Below, piece by piece: positions 2,746 to 64,000 of a stretch of 64,000 nucleotides of DNA. Within the stretch, counting starts at the first letter, position 1, and the number at the start of each line of letters is the position of its first letter. Source of the stretch: Paraspadella gotoi. Lineage: Eukaryota > Animalia > Chaetognatha. The notes beneath the pieces are model-generated. The model did no database searches. It was given only the letters and a program-made list of their open reading frames with translations, and had not been told where the DNA came from. Position numbers and translations under genes: made by a program. Location of the stretch: assembly GCA_051294375.1 (NCBI GenBank), contig CM119269.1, positions 17,718,265-17,782,264 of the forward strand. Direction: 5' to 3'.

Positions 2746-3343
2746 TCTGGCGAATCCTAAATTCACCTCCCGTATAGCTTGGTGAAACTCAGCTAATCCC
2801 ATTAACTTGGACAGCTAAGTACTTGTTCACCAACCGTAAGTTCCAGGTTCAATCCCCTCACGGTCACGCTGGTTAAAGTGTGATGGTGTCAGCATAAACA
2901 CGCCAGTGACATGGGGTGGTCACTGCAGGTCCAAAGCCCTGAGCGACAGTTGTCAGATGTCTTACACCCCAGACATCACACATGTTTCCCTGTGAGAGGT
3001 GAACTCTACTATTGAACACGCAACCGCTGCCTACCGTCGCTCATTGCTTAAGGGTATGCATCCCACACTCTGTGGCAATGAGTCAGTCACTCTGGGTTTG
3101 GTGACCCCAGTATATCATCTTAGGGGCTCATGTGGCAAATCCTAAATTCGCCTCCCATAGAGCTTGGTGAAACTCAGCTCTTCCCATTAGCTTGGACAGC
3201 TAAGTACTCGTTCACCAACTCATGGTCACGCTAGTTAAAGTGATTGTGTCGGCATAAACACGCCACAGACATGGAGTGGTCACTACATAAGGCCTTGAGC
3301 GCAAGCTGTCAGGAGATGCCTCACACATGTCTCCCCGTTGCCT
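2746..3343 (+). mobile_element. TRIM-like non-autonomous LTR element, family A (twister ribozyme in LTR)
   Basis: Direct repeats start at 2746 (TCTGGCGAATCC) and 3131 (TGTGGCAAATCC). Between them lie the PBS TGGTGACCCC (3099-3108, complementary to the tRNA-Trp 3' end) and a short purine tract AGGGG just before the second repeat. B-box GGTTCAATCCC at 2846-2856. The second repeat carries internal deletions and is truncated. Confidence 0.75.
2863..2947 (+). ncRNA. Twister ribozyme, type P5 permutation
   Basis: P5 CGCT/AGCG; P2 GTGT/ACAC; conserved GA followed by T1 strand TGG; palindromic P1 TGTCAGCA; conserved U^AA at 2895-2897; T2 GC; P3 CAGTGAC/GTCACTG; P4 CAGG/CCTG; L4 TCCA-AAGC. All conserved twister core residues are present. 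Confidence 0.85.
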
Positions 3344-13100: not shown

Positions 13101-15641
13101 GAAAACGAATAAAGAGCGGATTAAAAGCTCACAAGAGAATTCTAGTGATAGTATCATGAAAAATTACATATTCCCAGTAGAAACAGGAGAAGAGAGGAAG
13201 AATAAAAAAATACCGGCAAGATATTCTATCAATAGAATGATCTTCGCTATCTTCCAACAAAATCATTCAAAACGAATGAAGGGCTTCGATCGATCATTAC
13301 TAATATGTTCGAGTTTCTCAAGTTATTTAGAATTTGTCTTAGGTATCAATAAAATTATATCAAATTTCTTTTTCATTCTTACCTTTATTATATCTGCCGG
13401 CGGAAGCGGCCTCTCTTTTGTTTCACCATCCTGCGAAAAAGATTTTTCCATTACCAAATACTTCCAAAAAAACTCATCACAACTAGAAAAAAGTGAATCA
13501 ATGACTTACTGCTTGCTCCTCCTTTTCCTCGGTCTTCTGATCAGGGGCGTTCCCACGATTCCACCCGCCCATTTCGCCACCGGGTCCGCCGCCGCCCGTA
13601 TTCCCGCCCATATCTTCACCGGGCCTTCCGCCTCCCTCCCCACCGGGGCGTCCCCGAATGCGGTCGTTCTGCCGCTGGCGAATTTCGTCGTCGCGTCGCA
13701 TCATCTCGTCGTGACGGCGGGTCTCTTCCTCTCTGTATCTCATCTGCTCTTCCAATCGCCTGAAAACAAAAATCAAATAGAGATTCAATAATAAGATAAT
13801 GACTTTAGAATTTCTGAATAGAGTTAGGACGTGCGTGACTCACCTTTTGTGCTCCTCCTCCCTTCTCGCCCGTTCCGCTGCCTGCCTCTCCTCCATCCTC
13901 TTCAACTCCGCCTGGCGCTGTTCCAATTCTAAGGAAAACGAAGCAACGGAGATCAATAACAAAAACCTAACAAAAATACAATAAAACTTTCTTTTCATGG
14001 CACCCCTTTCCTATGCTCACCCTGACGCAGCTGCTGCGCGTGCCATTCTTGAATGGCAAAGGACTCCTCGTCCTGAAGCCGCTCGCGAGCCTCCTTGATC
14101 TGGACCTCCAGCTGGTCGCGTTGCTGCTTTTCCAGCTCGTAGAGCTGCTTCCAACGCTGAGCAAAGTCAAATTCAAAGGTGTTGGGCATGGCGAACCGCG
14201 GAGGATGGTCGCGTTCCTTCATATACATGGGGTTTTTGGGGACGGACTTCTCCGGGAGTCCGTCTTCCTCGTCGCGGACTTCGATGCTCTCGACGAGGAT
14301 GGGGCGCGGCTGCGTCGACATTAGCATCACGCCTTCGTTGATCCTTTATTTCATAGGGAAAATGAGCGAAGTTAGATAATGAATCAGCTCTATTGGTCAC
14401 TTGCTATCATTAGTTATTTTTGACGGTATGTTTTGAACGGTTTCTTACTCAGCAGCCAGAATCATGTGCATAACTTGGCAATCGAGTTTTAAGCGAATTC
14501 TCTTATCAATTTTTTTCAGTATCTTCTCCCTCAGCCACACGAATAGTTTCAATTAACATTAGCTAATAACATTTCGCTTTCCTTAAAACGGCCGGCTGTA
14601 ACAACACCAGTCAAGCATCCCCCTACCTCCTCAGCGCCATCTGTGCCGACGACTTCCTAGCAAATTCGACGATCCCTTCGCCGAGAGACTTGCCGCGTTC
14701 GTCAACGTAGACGACGGCGCGCTCGACAGGTCCAAACTGGGAGAAGGCTTGCTCCAGGAGCTCGTTGGAAATAAACGTGCTCAAATATTTTATCTAGGAT
14801 TAAGAAAGGATCAAGACATTTTGTAAGAGAAGTCAATCTCAATAATATCAATTTCGATTTTTAAATATGATTTGGACTCACTTTGAGCGCGGCGCCATGG
14901 GAGGCGAACCTCACTCGGATGACTCTCCCCTTAACGTCGGTCCCGTCCAGCTTGCTCTTGGCGTGTTGAGCGTTGTGAAGAAAGTCAAGACGAACGAAGC
15001 CGAAGCCGCGTTGTTGATTGAGGAAGACTTCGGATGTCTCCCCGTAAGGTTTAAAAAGTTCTTCGAATTCCGTCTCTTTCATATCGTTGGGCAAATTCCC
15101 CACGAAGAGGCGACATCGACCGAGAAACTTTTTCGGCTCCTTGGATTTTTCTGCCTCAGCCTCCTCCATTAACTGGTGCATCAACTCGTCGTCTCCGAAC
15201 GAGCTGTTACCGTTTCCGGCGTGACCGTCGAACCCCCCGCGGCCACCGCGCCCTCCTCGGCCGGGCATGCCGCGACCGCGAGACCCGTCAAAGCCTCTCG
15301 GAGTGAATGAGCCGCGAGGGGGAGTGGGCCCTCCTCCGCGGGGTGTGTGGGAGCCGCCACCGCCGCGCGGTGTATTAGGTCCGCCACGATTGGAAGGGGG
15401 GCCGCCTCGGACGGCGGGAGGACCTCCACGACCTCGAGGTGTAAACCGTCCACGATCGCCGCCTCCTCCGGGTCCACCTATTTAGATAAAACATGATTAA
15501 GACCAGTACATAAGATTAACTAAAAAAGTAAGTTTCACCTCGGCCACCACGGCCACGATCCGCTCCAGGTGTCACTTCTGCTGCTCGCGGAGATTTAGCA
15601 TTTTCGCCGCCTTCTTTCTTCTCCGGAGCGTTTTCCGCCAT
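10196..15641 (-). CDS. DBHS-family RNA-binding protein (NONO/SFPQ/PSPC1, Hrp65/nonA-like): RGG N-terminus, 2 RRMs, NOPS domain, coiled coil
   Basis: GT-AG exons 15641-15539, 15477-14882, 14793-14627, 14343-14021, 13928-13844, 13759-13510, 13430-13383, 10318-10196. Motifs: [65 protein letters not shown]. The C-terminus ends in an NLS-like KRPRWN*. Assignment of the last exon is inferred from phase and motif. Confidence 0.92.
11992..12145. mobile_element. MITE with telomere-like internal repeats
   Basis: TIRs GGG..TTTTACTTTCGCTGACCG / CGGTCGGCGAAAGTAAAA..CCC enclose degenerate TTAGGG-like repeats; lies in the DBHS last intron. Confidence 0.65.
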
Positions 15642-32063: not shown

Positions 32064-34384
32064 AAAGAAAGAAAGAAGGAAAGAAAGAAATACAATAAAT
32101 AAATAAATGATATAGTGTATATATAAGGCAATTTATGAAAGAAAGGATAAAATTATAAATGATTCGATGTCAAAAATGACACATAAAATTGAAGAATGAA
32201 TACATTCATTGGAAGTAACAGAGCTTCTTTATATCGTGAACCGTTTTTACGATCATTAGATTTTACTGTGATATCGCGTGAAATCGACACTAGAGGATTT
32301 TTCGAAATAGATTAAATGTGAGTACATCGACCATAAACACAGAGAGATTAGAGAGGAGAGATGAGAGAAAGAGAGAGAGAAGACAATAGACAATGGACAA
32401 TATTAATTACTTGCGGCTTTAGGCACCTTGAGGGCCTTTAAAAGCTACCTATTTCTCAAGAATATTTACAAATTGTAATTGACTTTGAAACAAAAGTGCA
32501 TCGCACTTCTAACTACACTCGGTTGAACAAACTTCATGAAACCTCTCTAATTGACAATGAACACAGATTCGCTCCTTTCCTAGTATTTCCCATCCCAGAA
32601 GTAGTTCTATCGGAGATATATTGGTTGGAATACGATTAAAGAAATTCGATCAATAATGTCATCAAAACAAATTATTAAAACGAATTATCCGAGATAGCAT
32701 TCTGTAGAAAAGTCCGCGTACATATTGCTGTAAGGGAATCATGTCTGCTGCATCTAATAAAATATCAGTAGGGGTATGGAGGTGAAATTTTGAAAAGTTC
32801 TTATGGCAAATACTGAAGCTTGTCAAAATTTTCCCAATGACATCTTGCAGCTGAAGCAAAACATGGTGATGAATACATAAATAATGAGACAACAAGACTA
32901 GAGAATAATTGGTAAAACAAGACGGTAGTTATCATTTGGTACAAATCTAGACAGGCGATTGATTGCTAAAATTTTTGATCTTGCTTTAGTAAATAGATCA
33001 TTTAAATGTAGAGTCCATGTTAATTTTTTATCTAAGTTACATCCATAAAAATTTAACTGTTTGACAAACAGGTATTTTACTACCAAAAAGAAATAGTTCT
33101 ATAGCATAATCATTATAAATATGAGTGCGAGTTAAAAGTAAGAGTTTGACTTATCGGGTAAAAGTTCTAAAAACCACTTTTTGCACCATCCTTCTAAACG
33201 ATTTAAAGTTTTTTGGAGACAAGTTACAGCCTAGCGGGATCCTTTGAGGTAGCCCAGACGGATGAATCATCTGCATATTGTGAGGCATTTTCCAAAACAT
33301 CTGTGCTGTTCCATCGCTGGAGTTGTTGTAGACTTGGTTTGGATTTTCTGTTTCGATTAGTGGAAGATCTTCTACATAGAAAGTAAAGATTTCTGGACTT
33401 AAGACGGCACCTTGTGGGGAGCCACAAATGATTTTTATGGTACGTGAAGTTTCACCTTTACTTATAACACAAAATGTTCGATCACTGATGAATGATACTA
33501 TTATTCGTAACATTTCCTTTGGAATTCCTGATTTTATTAATTTGTATTTTAGACCATCAAGCCAAATTGAGTCAAAAGCTTTTGCATAGTCGAGAGTCAC
33601 CAAAATTGTCACTCCTCTGATTTTAAATCCAAGATGAGCATCTTCTACAAGTCGTACTATGTTTTCTGGGGCAGATCGTCCTTTTTTGTAGCCTGATTGC
33701 AAATTATTCCGTTTACCTCTTAGTTCTAGCATAGATATTAAACCTGGAAGAATTATTCTTTCAAAGAGTTTCCAAGAACTGATAGTAAACTAATTGGCCT
33801 ATAGTTTCTGGATGATGTCCGCGTCTCGTCCTGGTTTTGCAATCATTCTGATGTGAGCGAGTTTCCATGATTTGGGAAAGTAGCCAATGTTTAGGCAGGC
33901 ACGGTATATGGCTAACAAGTGTTCAAGACCTTCTTTTGGCAGGTTTTTCAACATGCCATGAGTAATTCCATCTGGTCCTGCAGCTGATTTTGTTTTTAGA
34001 GATTTGATAAGTTCAACTAAATTTTTCATATTAAGATTTGATTTCATGTATTCTTTAAATTCTTCATTTGTGTGTTCTATTAAACCAGTATGGAATAAAG
34101 CTTCATTTTGTTTGACAAAACTTTCAACATGATTCGCCCACTCAATTCCATATTGTTGGACTGGACTGGTTCCAAGAATACCTTCCAATCTATCTGCAAA
34201 AATATTGAGATTGGCGGCATTGTCTTCAGCTTGAGTGCCGTCAGCTCGATAGACTAGTGCATCTGGTGGGGATGATGGCTTATAGTTTGTCATTCATTGA
34301 TTAATTTCCATTTTTTTGCGGAGTCTTTTTCTCTAGAATTTTTTTAACCTCTTTTTCATAGTAAGAATTTAAATCCTTTTTGTT

Positions 34385-60491: not shown

Positions 60492-60995
60492 ACTTAAACT
60501 GAAAGTCTTGATTGCTATATTTGTTAACGTCTTAGTATTATTAAGAATGGCCATTAAAATTTAGAAACATCATTATTTTAGATTATTTAGTTCTTTGAAA
60601 AGTTTTTATTAAAATTAAATCCATAAATTTTAAATATAATTATATACCTTTGAGAGACATTTCTCTGCCTAAACATTTAAATACTCTTTTGCTCGAGATA
60701 ATGATTATACAATTTAAAAATCGAATTTTTTTTCAAGTAATATTTAGTTTAATTTATGTTCTATGCCTTAAACTGAAAGTCTTGATTGCTATATTTCTTA
60801 ACGTCTTAGTATTATTAAGAATGGCCATTAAAATTCAGAAACACGATTATTTTAAATTATTTAGTTTTTTGAAAATTTTTTATTAAAATTAAATCCTTAG
60901 ATTTAGAATAAAACTAAATATATACCTTTGAAAGACATTTCTCTGCCTAAACGTTTAAATTCTCTTTTGCTCGAGATAATGATTATACAATTTAA
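60492..60995. repeat. ~275-bp tandem duplication
   Basis: cttaaactgaaagtcttgattgctatat...gagataatgattatacaatttaa occurs twice in tandem. Confidence 0.85.
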
Positions 60996-62641
60996 TCAAG
61001 AAAAAAATTCTGATCGTGGTCTTCATATGCTTTAGTGTCGAATATAACGCGGCATATTTTTTGGTAACGCAAGTTCACTGGATGCCAACCTCCATCATTT
61101 AACTTTTATTTATTTAACTTTTATTTATTTAACTTCATCATTTAAGTTTTATGCTTCTAATGAAGGATTTTTTAATTTCCACTTCACTTACACCTAACTT
61201 TACTTTAGGTCTCACAAACTGGGCAAATACTCCTTTAAACTCTTGATTCTGAAAAATAAGTAAACTGTCTCGTGAGCGGCGTAAGTTCTTAATATTTATT
61301 TTTATTATTTTCTCTTTTATTTAGGTTTTGAAGTCAGGTCGACTATTTTCTAATTTAGTGACGCATAAAAAATTCTTAAGGTAACAACAGCAATAAATAA
61401 GGGTTTTCAGAGCTATATAAGAGATATGAGATATGAGATATGAGATATGAGACTGTCATTATGCATTATCTGTGCCATCAATGTACAAAGATATCGCTCG
61501 TGCCAATTTGTCTCTTATCTTAGGTAGAAAACAGGAAATAAAGTAAGGGTAGGCATTAGGTAATATAGGGTGGCGAATTACGACTTGCCCCCCCTCAAAA
61601 CAATTAACATTAGACAAGAAAGGCGATGATTAAGAACCTGTTGACCCTCAACTCAAAACGAGATCCTCGAAATAAGTTGGTCAGTTTCCGCGCATTTCGG
61701 TCGCAAGGGGGCGATTAGGGGCAACTGGGGTCGACTGCTGGGCGTGGTTGACACGGATTATGAAGGACGAGTTCGGAATTTGGTTTCCCCAAAGGAAGGC
61801 GCAGAGGCGTTGGGGCCTTTAAAAGTGATTGACGTTAGCGCGCTGTACCCGAGCACTAGACGTAAAAAGAACATAAGTTCTTTAAGTTTAAAAAAAAAAC
61901 AACAACAAAAAAACAAGAACGGTAATTCCAATGTGTTGCGCCGCAGTGACTGCCTTTTCGAGTGATAACGTGACTCCCGTGACTCGCACTGCATCGGAAT
62001 TCGATCTTTTTTTCATATTTCTTTAGATACAAAAGGTAGCGCTAGCAGTCGCTCAGATTCCAGGTTCAGCAAAATTAACAAAATGTCCCAAGTGTCTCGA
62101 ATGTTGCGAACTAGTAACTACTATTCTACAGGGTAGTGATTCAAAACTTTGAAAATCCCTAACACTCGTGACGCATTAAATATTTCTAAAGAGATTTATT
62201 CATTTGTTCTCTTTAGAATTTTTCTTTTAGCATAGAAATGAGCATAATATTAGTTTTGGGTATATGACACTTGTTGCTTGCAGCACATTTAAATTATTAA
62301 TTTTATAGAACTACCGGAAAGATAAATTCATATATTTTGCTATCTCCTTTATCATGTTTATTTATATTTTTATTGACACAATGCATGCAAATTTCAAATG
62401 AGGAGGGATTTTTATTTTGAAAATCGATCAAAAAAATTAGTTGATAATGAATTTATAATAATGAACTGCTTTAGGTAAAAAAATTAATTGTCCATTAAAG
62501 CGTAGAAAAAATATTAAAATCAATTAGAATCAAAATTCGAATAGTGGATCATGCTTGTACCTGTGAACATTTTTAAATAAAAAATATTTTGAAGAGACAG
62601 TAATTATTGTTATATGTTAGTGACAGAACCGTTCAATATAA

Positions 62642-62715
62642 GCAGTCCCTGAGCTTCGGATCAGGCTGTAACACCATGTTACAGGCGGGTTAAGCGCCCC
62701 GTCCCTCTTAACTGC
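62642..62715 (-). ncRNA. Twister ribozyme, type P5 (3' LTR)
   Basis: P5 GCAGTT/GACTGC; GA plus T1 CGGG pairing with L4 TCCG; palindrome GGCGCT; U^AA (cut 62692/62691); short P2; T2 GC; P3 CTGTAACA/TGTTACAG; P4 CCTGA/TCAGG; L4 TCCG-AAGC. Confidence 0.8.
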
Positions 62716-63060
62716 CAGACGACCACCGGGCAAGAACCCCGGACCTTTGGGTTGGGAGGCGAATGACTTGCCTCCGGCACCAATGGCCGCTGTGAACGGT
62801 TGGTGGATTTTTAGTCCACCATACATCCCCCCTCCCGTAGGGAGAAGTCTGTTGCGTCTCTTCAGTGAATTGTTGTTGTTGTGGAAAGTTCGTCACCAAG
62901 TTGAGGCATGTCGCCTGATGTGTTGTGGGCGGAAAGTGCATCACCAGGTTGAGGCATGTCGCCTGAAAGTGTTGTTGTTGCTGTTGTGTTCGGAAGTCGG
63001 GCTCACAATGAAGAGACAGTAATTATTGATATATGTTAGTGACAGAACCGTTCAATATAA

Positions 63061-63134
63061 GCAGTCCCTGAGCTTCGGATCAGGCTGTAACACCATGTTA
63101 CAGGCGGGTTAAGCGCCCCGTCCCTCTTAACTGC
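63061..63134 (-). ncRNA. Twister ribozyme, type P5 (5' LTR)
   Basis: Identical 74 nt to 62642-62715; cut predicted between 63111 and 63110. Confidence 0.8.
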
Positions 63135-63379
63135 CAGACGACCACCGGGCAAGAACCCCGACCTTTGGGTTGGGAGGCGAAGACTTGCCTCCGGCACCAA
63201 TGGCCGCTGGATGACGGTTGGTGGATTTTAGTCCACCATAATTTATTATTTTTTTTCAATTTTTGCATATGCCTATATTTATACCTAGTACTCACCATAA
63301 AAAATGCTAAAATTTTAAAATGTTTTTTTCCTATTTTTGAAAGCAGAATTGAATTCCTCACAAAAAGTTGACTACAATA

Positions 63380-64000
63380 TAACTCTTTTTAAAAAAATAT
63401 TTCATTAAGTAGGTCAAAATCATAAAAAACTATTATAGTTAACCTATAATTTAATTTTAGTATGAATAATATAGTTTTTTTTACTTTTAGCTAACTTAAT
63501 AAAATGATTTTTTATTAAAACTTATATTTTCCTATATCAACTTTTAATAAAGAATTCGAATCTGCTTTCAAAACTAAAAAAAATATTTTTTAATTTTAAT
63601 AATTTTAATGGTTTCTACTAAGTATAAATAATTAAAATATGCGTTTTATTTCGAATTCAACAAGGTTGATTCAGTACATACATGAGCAGCAAAAAAAGCT
63701 AAGATTAAAGACAAAACAAAGTTAAAGATTGCATGACACTACCACTATAGACTAAACAAAGTTAAAGTTATAGATTAAAATATTTCTATCATTAAAGTTG
63801 CAGTAGCCAACCAAATTTTAATTTTAATGGGAACAACATTAAACGAATCCATTATTGATAGTAGTTATTGTGTTAAAATATTTTTTTGCAAAAATGTTCC
63901 GAACCATGAGTAATTAGTTAACTAAAATTATAATATTGCTATTTAATGTCAAAATTTTTTTTAGATATTTTAAGTTTTTTTAATTGATTCTGATAGAGCT
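63380..64000 (-). mobile_element. Third copy of the AT-rich transposon-like family (runs off the window)
   Basis: 63805-64000 aligns with 23960-24140 in the same orientation; left boundary is approximate. Confidence 0.55.

Follow-up and report, generated by a model that had tools for sequence, protein, structure and literature searches.

A compact animal LTR element with a predicted type-P5 twister ribozyme fold in each LTR

Retrozymes have been divided into plant LTR elements with type III hammerhead ribozymes and animal non-LTR elements that carry neither a primer site nor a polypurine tract (PPT) (available text of PMC7761336, PMC4918200, PMC7229834, and bioRxiv 10.64898/2026.07.22.740005). 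Plant LTR retrozymes, as described in the available text of PMC4918200, are non-coding, have a ribozyme in each LTR, a primer site, a PPT, and a 4-bp duplication, are presumed to rely on a Ty3/gypsy helper, and have a monomer ribozyme that is predicted to be blocked. The element described here, which we call E1, resembles them in all of these properties, with a ribozyme fold in each LTR and a putative 4-bp duplication. It differs in its ribozyme, primer, and host (a type III hammerhead and a Met primer in the plant elements; a twister fold, a Trp primer, and an animal host in E1), as well as in size, with LTRs of ~235 nt and a predicted monomer of 419 nt compared to LTRs of 300 to 400 nt and a monomer of ~700 nt in plants. 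Furthermore, cleavage and circles are reported for the plant elements, whereas for E1 both are predictions.

Three groups of animal elements resemble E1 in other respects. Animal non-LTR retrozymes and Penelope-like hammerhead elements also reside in animals and have a small predicted circle, but unlike E1 they form tandem arrays with type I hammerheads and have no LTRs, primer site, or PPT (available text of PMC7229834, bioRxiv 10.64898/2026.07.22.740005, and PMC6765202). Animal TRIMs such as Helenus (PMC10886601, available parts) are, like E1, <1 kb long, with two LTRs, a Trp primer site behind a 1-nt spacer, a 4-bp duplication (putative in E1), and gypsy-type priming (predicted in E1); their LTRs contain a tRNA- or 5S-derived promoter, whereas the E1 LTR contains a ribozyme fold. 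Finally, the twister T-variants of the RTE element Perere-3 from Schistosoma mansoni (PMC8501958, available parts) occur in an animal retroelement and have a P3 start similar to that of E1. However, the Perere-3 twister is of type P1, single, and located at the 5' end of a non-LTR element, while those of E1 are P5-permuted, paired, and within LTRs. According to a figure legend in the available part of the same paper, some S. mansoni twister variants have LTR-type RT domains downstream, although these variants are not shown to lie within LTRs.

The original prediction for this locus was a twister-based LTR retrozyme, of which it knew no described case. The literature searched likewise yielded neither a twister LTR retrozyme nor an LTR retrozyme from an animal; such elements may be present in supplements, in repeat databases, or in subscription journals. 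The available parts of PMC10085705 and PMC9901934 contain no twister LTR retrozyme either, and the word "twister" occurs 0 times in the available text of bioRxiv 10.64898/2026.07.22.740005. E1 departs from both printed retrozyme classes (plant LTR with hammerhead, and animal non-LTR); it is predicted to function like an LTR retrozyme, outside the plant family as defined and, by score, outside Rfam P5.

E1 is a non-autonomous mini-LTR element of 651 nt on the minus strand (62590-63240) of the window, i.e., the whole stretch of 64,000 nucleotides that was analyzed, and it was delimited by repeat comparison and by its dispersed family in sequencing runs. Its GC content is 52%, compared to 20 to 26% in the flanks. 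The description of a 651-bp non-coding element with two LTRs of ~235 bp proved accurate: the 5' LTR (63009-63240, minus strand) is 232 nt and the 3' LTR (62590-62825, minus strand) 236 nt long, and the pair, compared as 62590-62823 and 63009-63240, is 97.0% identical over 236 columns at a spacing of 419. The 3' LTR runs from TG to CA and ends at a sharp family boundary. The 5' LTR also ends in CA and begins with TATGG, 2 nt short of the TG, so that the terminal TG is absent. Between the LTRs lies a non-coding internal region of 183 nt (62826-63008, minus strand) with no long ORF, in which a 48-nt unit is present in two tandem copies (62883-62966) and a segment (62864-62855) is predicted to pair with the 3' end of the LTR. 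No open frame runs around the 419-nt circle, and a word search found no AATAAA, TATA, or box A/B words in E1.

Both junctions of the internal region carry the expected priming sites. The PPT (62836-62826, minus strand) consists of 11 purines, is the longest purine run within the 419-nt unit and, as originally noted, directly adjoins the TG (62825-62824) of the 3' LTR. The primer-binding site (62996-63007, minus strand) begins 1 nt (a T) past the CA of the 5' LTR. Its assignment to tRNA-Trp held for the common variant of the family, which matches the tRNA-Trp 3' end at 12 of 13 nt, but in the E1 copy one base of the initial TGG is missing; Gypsy-32-I_NVi has an identical T spacer of 1 nt (both comparisons with the available supplement of PMC10886601). 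On both sides, E1 is flanked by the putative 4-bp target-site duplication ATTT (62586-62589 on the 3' side and 63241-63244 on the 5' side), seen for one copy in flanks of 74 to 80% AT. The runs also contained joints of 62584/62590 to 63252, representing the host repeat without the element, at 80% likeness and with short sides, which by themselves do not fix the duplication length. Features of a TRIM that are present in E1 are a length of <1 kb, the absence of a protein, a pair of LTRs, both priming sites, and copies that are dispersed. So is the layout of a plant-type LTR retrozyme, with two LTRs, each with a ribozyme fold, around a non-coding region and with a primer site, one base short, and a PPT at the LTR junctions.

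Evidence for a family came from contigs of public sequencing runs, four of which were mapped (X1, X5, X9, and X10). The E1 stretch was found whole or partial in 12 of 14 runs, 8 of which contained at least half of its words. In X1, 21,225 contigs mapped to the 2-kb stretch around E1, where there are other repeats too and depth does not equal copy number. Unlike flanks joined E1 at 62589/62590 in 175 (X1), 88 (X5), 22 (X9), and 1 (X10) contigs. The primer-site variant with the full TGG accounted for 54% (X1), 56% (X5), and 97% (X9) of the depth, in 36, 14, and 6 contigs, respectively, and was also found in the single contig from organism B. We further examined where pieces run off the element, using the 28 listed of 26,540, of which 26 were within E1. 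Among these listed pieces, 10 of 13 low-end stops fell at 62583-62592, while the high-end stops were distributed over 62823-62827 (3 of 10), 62792-62811 (4 of 10, adjoining two frequent indels), and other positions (3 of 10). These positions imply that the 3' end of the family is fixed and that its 5' end probably is as well. E1 is therefore a member of a dispersed, many-copy family with a fixed 3' end. A T-A at flank positions -3/-2 was seen in 5 of 5 loose-end lines with multiple contigs and was absent from the single X10 contig; this suggests a preference for a palindromic 4-bp target, in lines that are not independent and in AT-rich DNA. As a separate observation, the depth of E1 relative to neighboring repeats in X5 greatly exceeded that in X1, run types being guessed, so that this is a measure of neither expression nor copy number.

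A 3' end much sharper than the 5' end, with 3 of 10 high-end pieces ending far inside, could also be produced by a Penelope-like (Naiad-type) non-autonomous element or a non-LTR retrozyme, in which a 419-nt unit together with a 5'-truncated copy would form a pseudo-LTR pair and spread by target-primed reverse transcription. The missing 5' TG of E1 fits such an origin, and there is a precedent in MRC1, which was formerly mistaken for a non-autonomous LTR element because partial tandems give pseudo-LTRs (PMC8557442, available parts). However, animal non-LTR retrozymes have neither a primer site nor a PPT, and their duplications are longer (available text of PMC4918200 and PMC7229834), whereas in E1 a TGG-type primer site follows the CA and the PPT adjoins the TG. 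The 5' copy also starts at most 2 nt from the PPT junction, which we estimate would occur in ~1% of cases under random truncation, and a second element of the window, E2 (see below), starts at a hairpin homologous to that of E1. In the Naiad/Chlamys supplement of PMC8557442, the motif occurs 13 times, and none of the 4 occurrences listed with their surroundings showed a twister context. We consider this origin improbable.

Each LTR was predicted to hold an identical type-P5 twister, and this was borne out by a 76-nt stretch (62716-62641) without any difference between the two LTRs, whose fold goes beyond that of shuffled sequences. In the 3' LTR, the fold (62641-62716, minus strand) is enclosed by P5 (62716-62710 with 62647-62641) and comprises the L1' strand (62703-62699), the P1 linker (62698-62693), the P2 (62689-62687) and T2 (62686-62685) strands, and L4 (62660-62653), with P3 and P4 also present. 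The identical fold in the 5' LTR occupies 63060-63135 (minus strand). The putative U^A cleavage sites, 62692^62691 and 63111^63110, are where the original prediction had placed them. The parts were assigned against a published twister table (PMC8501958, available part) and Rfam consensus lines. They follow the order of type P5, with P5, P2', GA-C-GG, a 6-nt linker, U^AA, a 3-nt P2 strand, and GC, followed by a 7-bp P3, a 5-bp P4, and an 8-nt L4. The core is complete, with the UAA loop, the GA-x-GG strand with the catalytic G, the GC/GC T2, and L4 on P4 all present. In twisters the catalytic G lies in the 3' strand of L1 (PMC8501958, available part), here 62703 and 63122, and the G of L4 that had been suggested as a mutant control is thus not the catalytic one.

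The T1 pseudoknot between L4 and L1' can form three Watson-Crick pairs, the middle one of which is C-G in E1, U-A in E2, and G-C among the published twisters of S. mansoni (PMC8501958, available part), i.e., exchanged on both sides in E1 compared to that set. That three different pairs occur at one T1 position is the strongest indication of selection on the fold. P2 is imperfect, the 3-nt strand forming 2 Watson-Crick pairs and a C.A mismatch or bulge. In rice twister mutants, T1 pairs could be exchanged without loss, and mismatches in P1, P2, and P4 were often tolerated (PMC5113685); P1 is dispensable, with slower cleavage (PMC6154101 and PMC8501958, available parts). It had also been pointed out that the LTR differences all fall outside the ribozyme. 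This is true, but with 5 to 7 events and a ribozyme covering 76 of 234 nt it is not significant (P 0.06 to 0.14), and we dropped it as a sign of selection.

To assess the fold against chance, we used a descriptor, a lenient twister pattern that was written after the sequence had been seen. At its full level it gave 3 sites in the window, compared to none in 150 shuffles of the window and none in 20,000 shuffles of the element, while one shuffle of each kind reached the level below. The notion that the twister-like pattern merely reflects chance hairpins in a GC-rich LTR could draw on the design of the descriptor after inspection and on the absence of an Rfam match for E1, but the result of the full-level shuffles argues against it, as does the fact that the same descriptor picked up E2, which Rfam weakly recognizes as a twister. 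Chance is very unlikely to explain the pattern. With high probability, E1 is an LTR element whose twister fold is real, and the twister is likely active as a ribozyme.

The original prediction had named the lack of a covariance-model match as refuting. The Rfam twister models indeed gave no match for E1, neither at the gathering score nor at E<=10, and E1 stays below the threshold of 37.6 bits of the Twister-P5 model (RF02684). On viral type-P5 twisters, used as a positive control, this model recognized 6 of 8 loci, with 44.5 to 59 bits. The likely reason for the miss is the shape of the model, which includes a P1 hairpin of 8 bp but lacks P3, while E1 has the reverse. The type-P5 twisters of RF02684 share with E1 the order P2'-GAxGG-P1-UAA-P2-GC-P4/L4, the core nucleotides and, in some members, a 3-nt P2. 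E1 differs from them in that a long P1 hairpin is missing, P3 is present, the T1 middle pair is swapped, and P2 has one mismatch. Viral twisters above the Rfam P5 cut-off also included some with a 3-nt P2 strand (L248, L258, L267, and L249), in which all three positions are paired, unlike in E1. Rfam scans found no hammerhead in E1. Given that Rfam misses the twister form of E1, others have probably gone unnoticed in repeat libraries of animals.

Reference scans for canonical P5 twisters returned 2 of 120 and 4 of 121 loci that passed the filter, among the matches listed, and one of these six (L186) was set aside as a tandem type-P1 twister. A metagenome scan with the family motif gave a single match, which we rejected as a chance hit inside a bacterial ORF that is dissimilar to E1. 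In a viral scan, the compensated motif had 94 matches, 8 of them with a stem of 3 to 4 bp under L4, and on inspection none was a full twister.

The third descriptor site (2882-2937, plus strand) led, independently of E1, to E2 (2746-3337, plus strand, boundaries approximate), an older relative with an E1-like layout. Its repeats, ~2746-2990 and 3131-3337, are 75% identical and begin at a hairpin homologous to the 5' hairpin of E1. The first repeat contains an intact-looking type-P5 twister (2862-2948, plus strand), with the catalytic G at 2882, the predicted cut at 2895^2896, L4 at 2930-2937, a 4-bp P2, and U-A as the variable T1 pair; Rfam twister-P1 scored it at 22 bits (E 0.044), compared to a gathering score of 67.2. 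The twister in the second repeat (3228-3305, plus strand) is decayed and has an 8-nt P1 linker that is fully self-complementary. By blastn, E1 and E2 are similar only around the twister (63% over 89 nt, E 0.02), and blastn and nhmmer found no further copies of either in the window. E2 as a whole is decayed, and no clear primer site, PPT, or duplication can be assigned to it. E2 is a second family with an E1-like layout and another T1 pair.

We then considered the energetics of the fold. Within one LTR, P4, P5, and most of P3 were predicted to form with a probability near 1. However, a rival 4-bp helix (62701-62698 with 62689-62686) had a probability of 0.99, and an active-ready fold would cost ~8 kcal/mol per E1 core and 11.9 kcal/mol for the first twister of E2, pseudoknot energies excluded. 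In the predicted 419-nt circle (z -2.2, with 1 of 100 shuffles as stable, and z -1.3 for the opposite strand), the ribozyme adopts this rival fold, and the stability of the circle is modest.

The 6-nt P1 linker of E1 is predicted to disfavor a hairpin (+5 kcal/mol) and to favor a self-duplex (-8.3 kcal/mol). Self-pairing is also full for the 8-nt linker of the second E2 repeat (-9.5 kcal/mol), but not for that of the first (-2.3 kcal/mol). When the linkers are permuted, self-complementarity arises in 24 of 60 cases for E1 and in 192 of 1680 for the second E2 repeat, so that this property is weak evidence for a dimer. A strand-swapped pair within one transcript would be nested and 2.2 to 2.4 kcal/mol better than two monomers, yet 17 to 18 kcal/mol above the free ensemble, and the energy model leaves the choice between monomer and dimer undecided. 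If the E1 twister is active, we regard the chances that it works as a dimer as roughly even. Palindromic short-stem hammerheads of Penelope elements and of the axolotl act as dimers (PMC6765202 and PMC7229834, available parts), while no twister working as a dimer was found in the literature searched.

The imperfect P2, the absent P1 hairpin, the competing helix with its cost to the active-ready fold, and the missing Rfam match could all be accommodated if E1 were an ordinary TRIM that spreads by the standard LTR route, with a linear RNA and R-mediated transfer, and that had inherited a twister which is slow, dead, structural, or involved in end trimming only. Among animals, TRIMs that combine a Trp primer site with a 4-bp duplication are indeed known (PMC10886601, available parts). 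Double cleavage would, moreover, cost the standard route its terminal repeat. On the other hand, all core nucleotides, T1, T2, P3, P4, and P5 are intact in E1, and the T1 pair is altered on both sides in two families. Among the family variants listed, 0 of 40 substitution rows and 0 of 12 indel rows fell inside the twister, with 157 and 39 more rows existing beyond these. We regard the ordinary-TRIM explanation as unlikely, though it is the most serious of the alternatives.

We favor, with some reservation, the reading of E1 as an LTR retrozyme that spreads via the whole circle route. Transcription of the minus strand would start within or upstream of the 5' LTR, and the transcript would cut itself at both U^A sites, releasing a 419-nt piece (62692-63110, minus strand, as given by the cut positions). 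As the P1 linker of 6 nt pairs with itself and does not close a hairpin, cleavage may be carried out by two ribozymes that swap strands. A host ligase would then join the 5'-OH and cyclic-phosphate ends into a circle, in which the rival helix would hold the lone ribozyme off. In LTR elements, the first strand transfer needs a terminal repeat, and double cutting would take that repeat away. Without it, a full copy can be made only if the RNA is circular or the enzyme jumps between ends. Reverse transcription could be primed by tRNA-Trp with the enzyme of a gypsy helper, and one pass around the circle would yield the complete minus strand, making the usual first transfer unnecessary. The PPT would prime the plus strand, and the integrase of the helper would insert the product with a 4-bp duplication.

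The most likely helper, judged by analogy, would be a member of the CsRn1 gypsy lineage, in which a Trp primer site goes together with duplications of 4 bp (PMC3630058, available parts), with an example in a crustacean (PMC3587641, available parts). E1 has a Trp-type primer site and a putative duplication of this length, the Trp site not being exclusive to CsRn1. Overall, the reading of the original prediction is partly supported: the family data and E2 support the anatomy, and cleavage, the circle, and the Ty3/gypsy helper are what we infer. More tentatively, a general scheme may be proposed in which animal LTR retrozymes, with at least two families in this genome, depend on an obligate pair of twisters, avoid recutting, and use the circle in place of R-mediated transfer as a template for CsRn1 enzymes; this extended version we consider doubtful.

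If the reading of E1 as an LTR retrozyme is true, the LTR-retrozyme strategy is independent of host kingdom and ribozyme class and arose or spread more than once, and eukaryotic type-P5 twisters would have a concrete job. With its 651 nt, E1 would offer a compact system for RNA-circle replication of LTR elements, a step that is still inferred for plant retrozymes.

With respect to its surroundings, a reading of 61450-62050 as rRNA was dropped, as there was no match, and a scan for tRNA genes over the whole window was negative. The surrounding animal DNA is rich in introns; an exon at 14861-15481 has its best match in NONO/PSPC1/SFPQ proteins (E 1e-27), and another exon codes for a tyrosine-kinase-type domain.

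The window contained a second twister-bearing element, E2 (2746-3337, plus strand), an older element with the same layout as the mini-LTR element E1 (62590-63240, minus strand) and a twister of its own. The predicted twister fold was intact in the first E2 repeat (about 2746-2990) and decayed in the second (about 3131-3337). Because a Trp-type primer-site word (3099-3110) was found close to the second repeat, and not directly behind the first, the boundaries of this element are open to two readings.

E1 itself was inserted within an AT-rich, MITE-like host repeat (63276-63630 and 62500-62589), whose two arms are inverted relative to each other and match imperfectly over a long stretch (73% across about 360 nt). 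Further copies of this host repeat were without E1. The E1 internal region carried 48-nt tandem copies (62966-62883, minus strand), each unit corresponding to 16 codons, inside a short stop-free frame encoding a 31-residue peptide with an ATG start. These copies may be what is left of a gag gene, or else a pair of packaging hairpins.

Broken reverse-transcriptase fragments were detected at 33151-34293 on the minus strand (Pfam RVT_1, E 6e-16). We take these to be LINE-like, judging by their motifs, and they were rejected as the helper of E1, i.e., the hypothetical autonomous gypsy element supplying its reverse transcriptase. An AT-rich 274-nt unit was also present in two copies at 60493-60995 (92% identity over 229 nt).

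A half twister was seen at 11550-11514 (minus strand), consisting of UAA, 4 nt, GC, and a 5-bp P4 with an L4 loop of twister type. No GA-x-GG partner was found in its vicinity, and the Rfam twister models gave no match there. It could perhaps be a leftover of a third family.

Among the matches listed in the reference scans, one viral contig (L186:39-138) carried a tandem pair of type-P1 twisters separated by a short linker, and another set of viral loci (L248, L121, and L249) comprised at least four type-P5 twisters inside about 2 kb of one contig.
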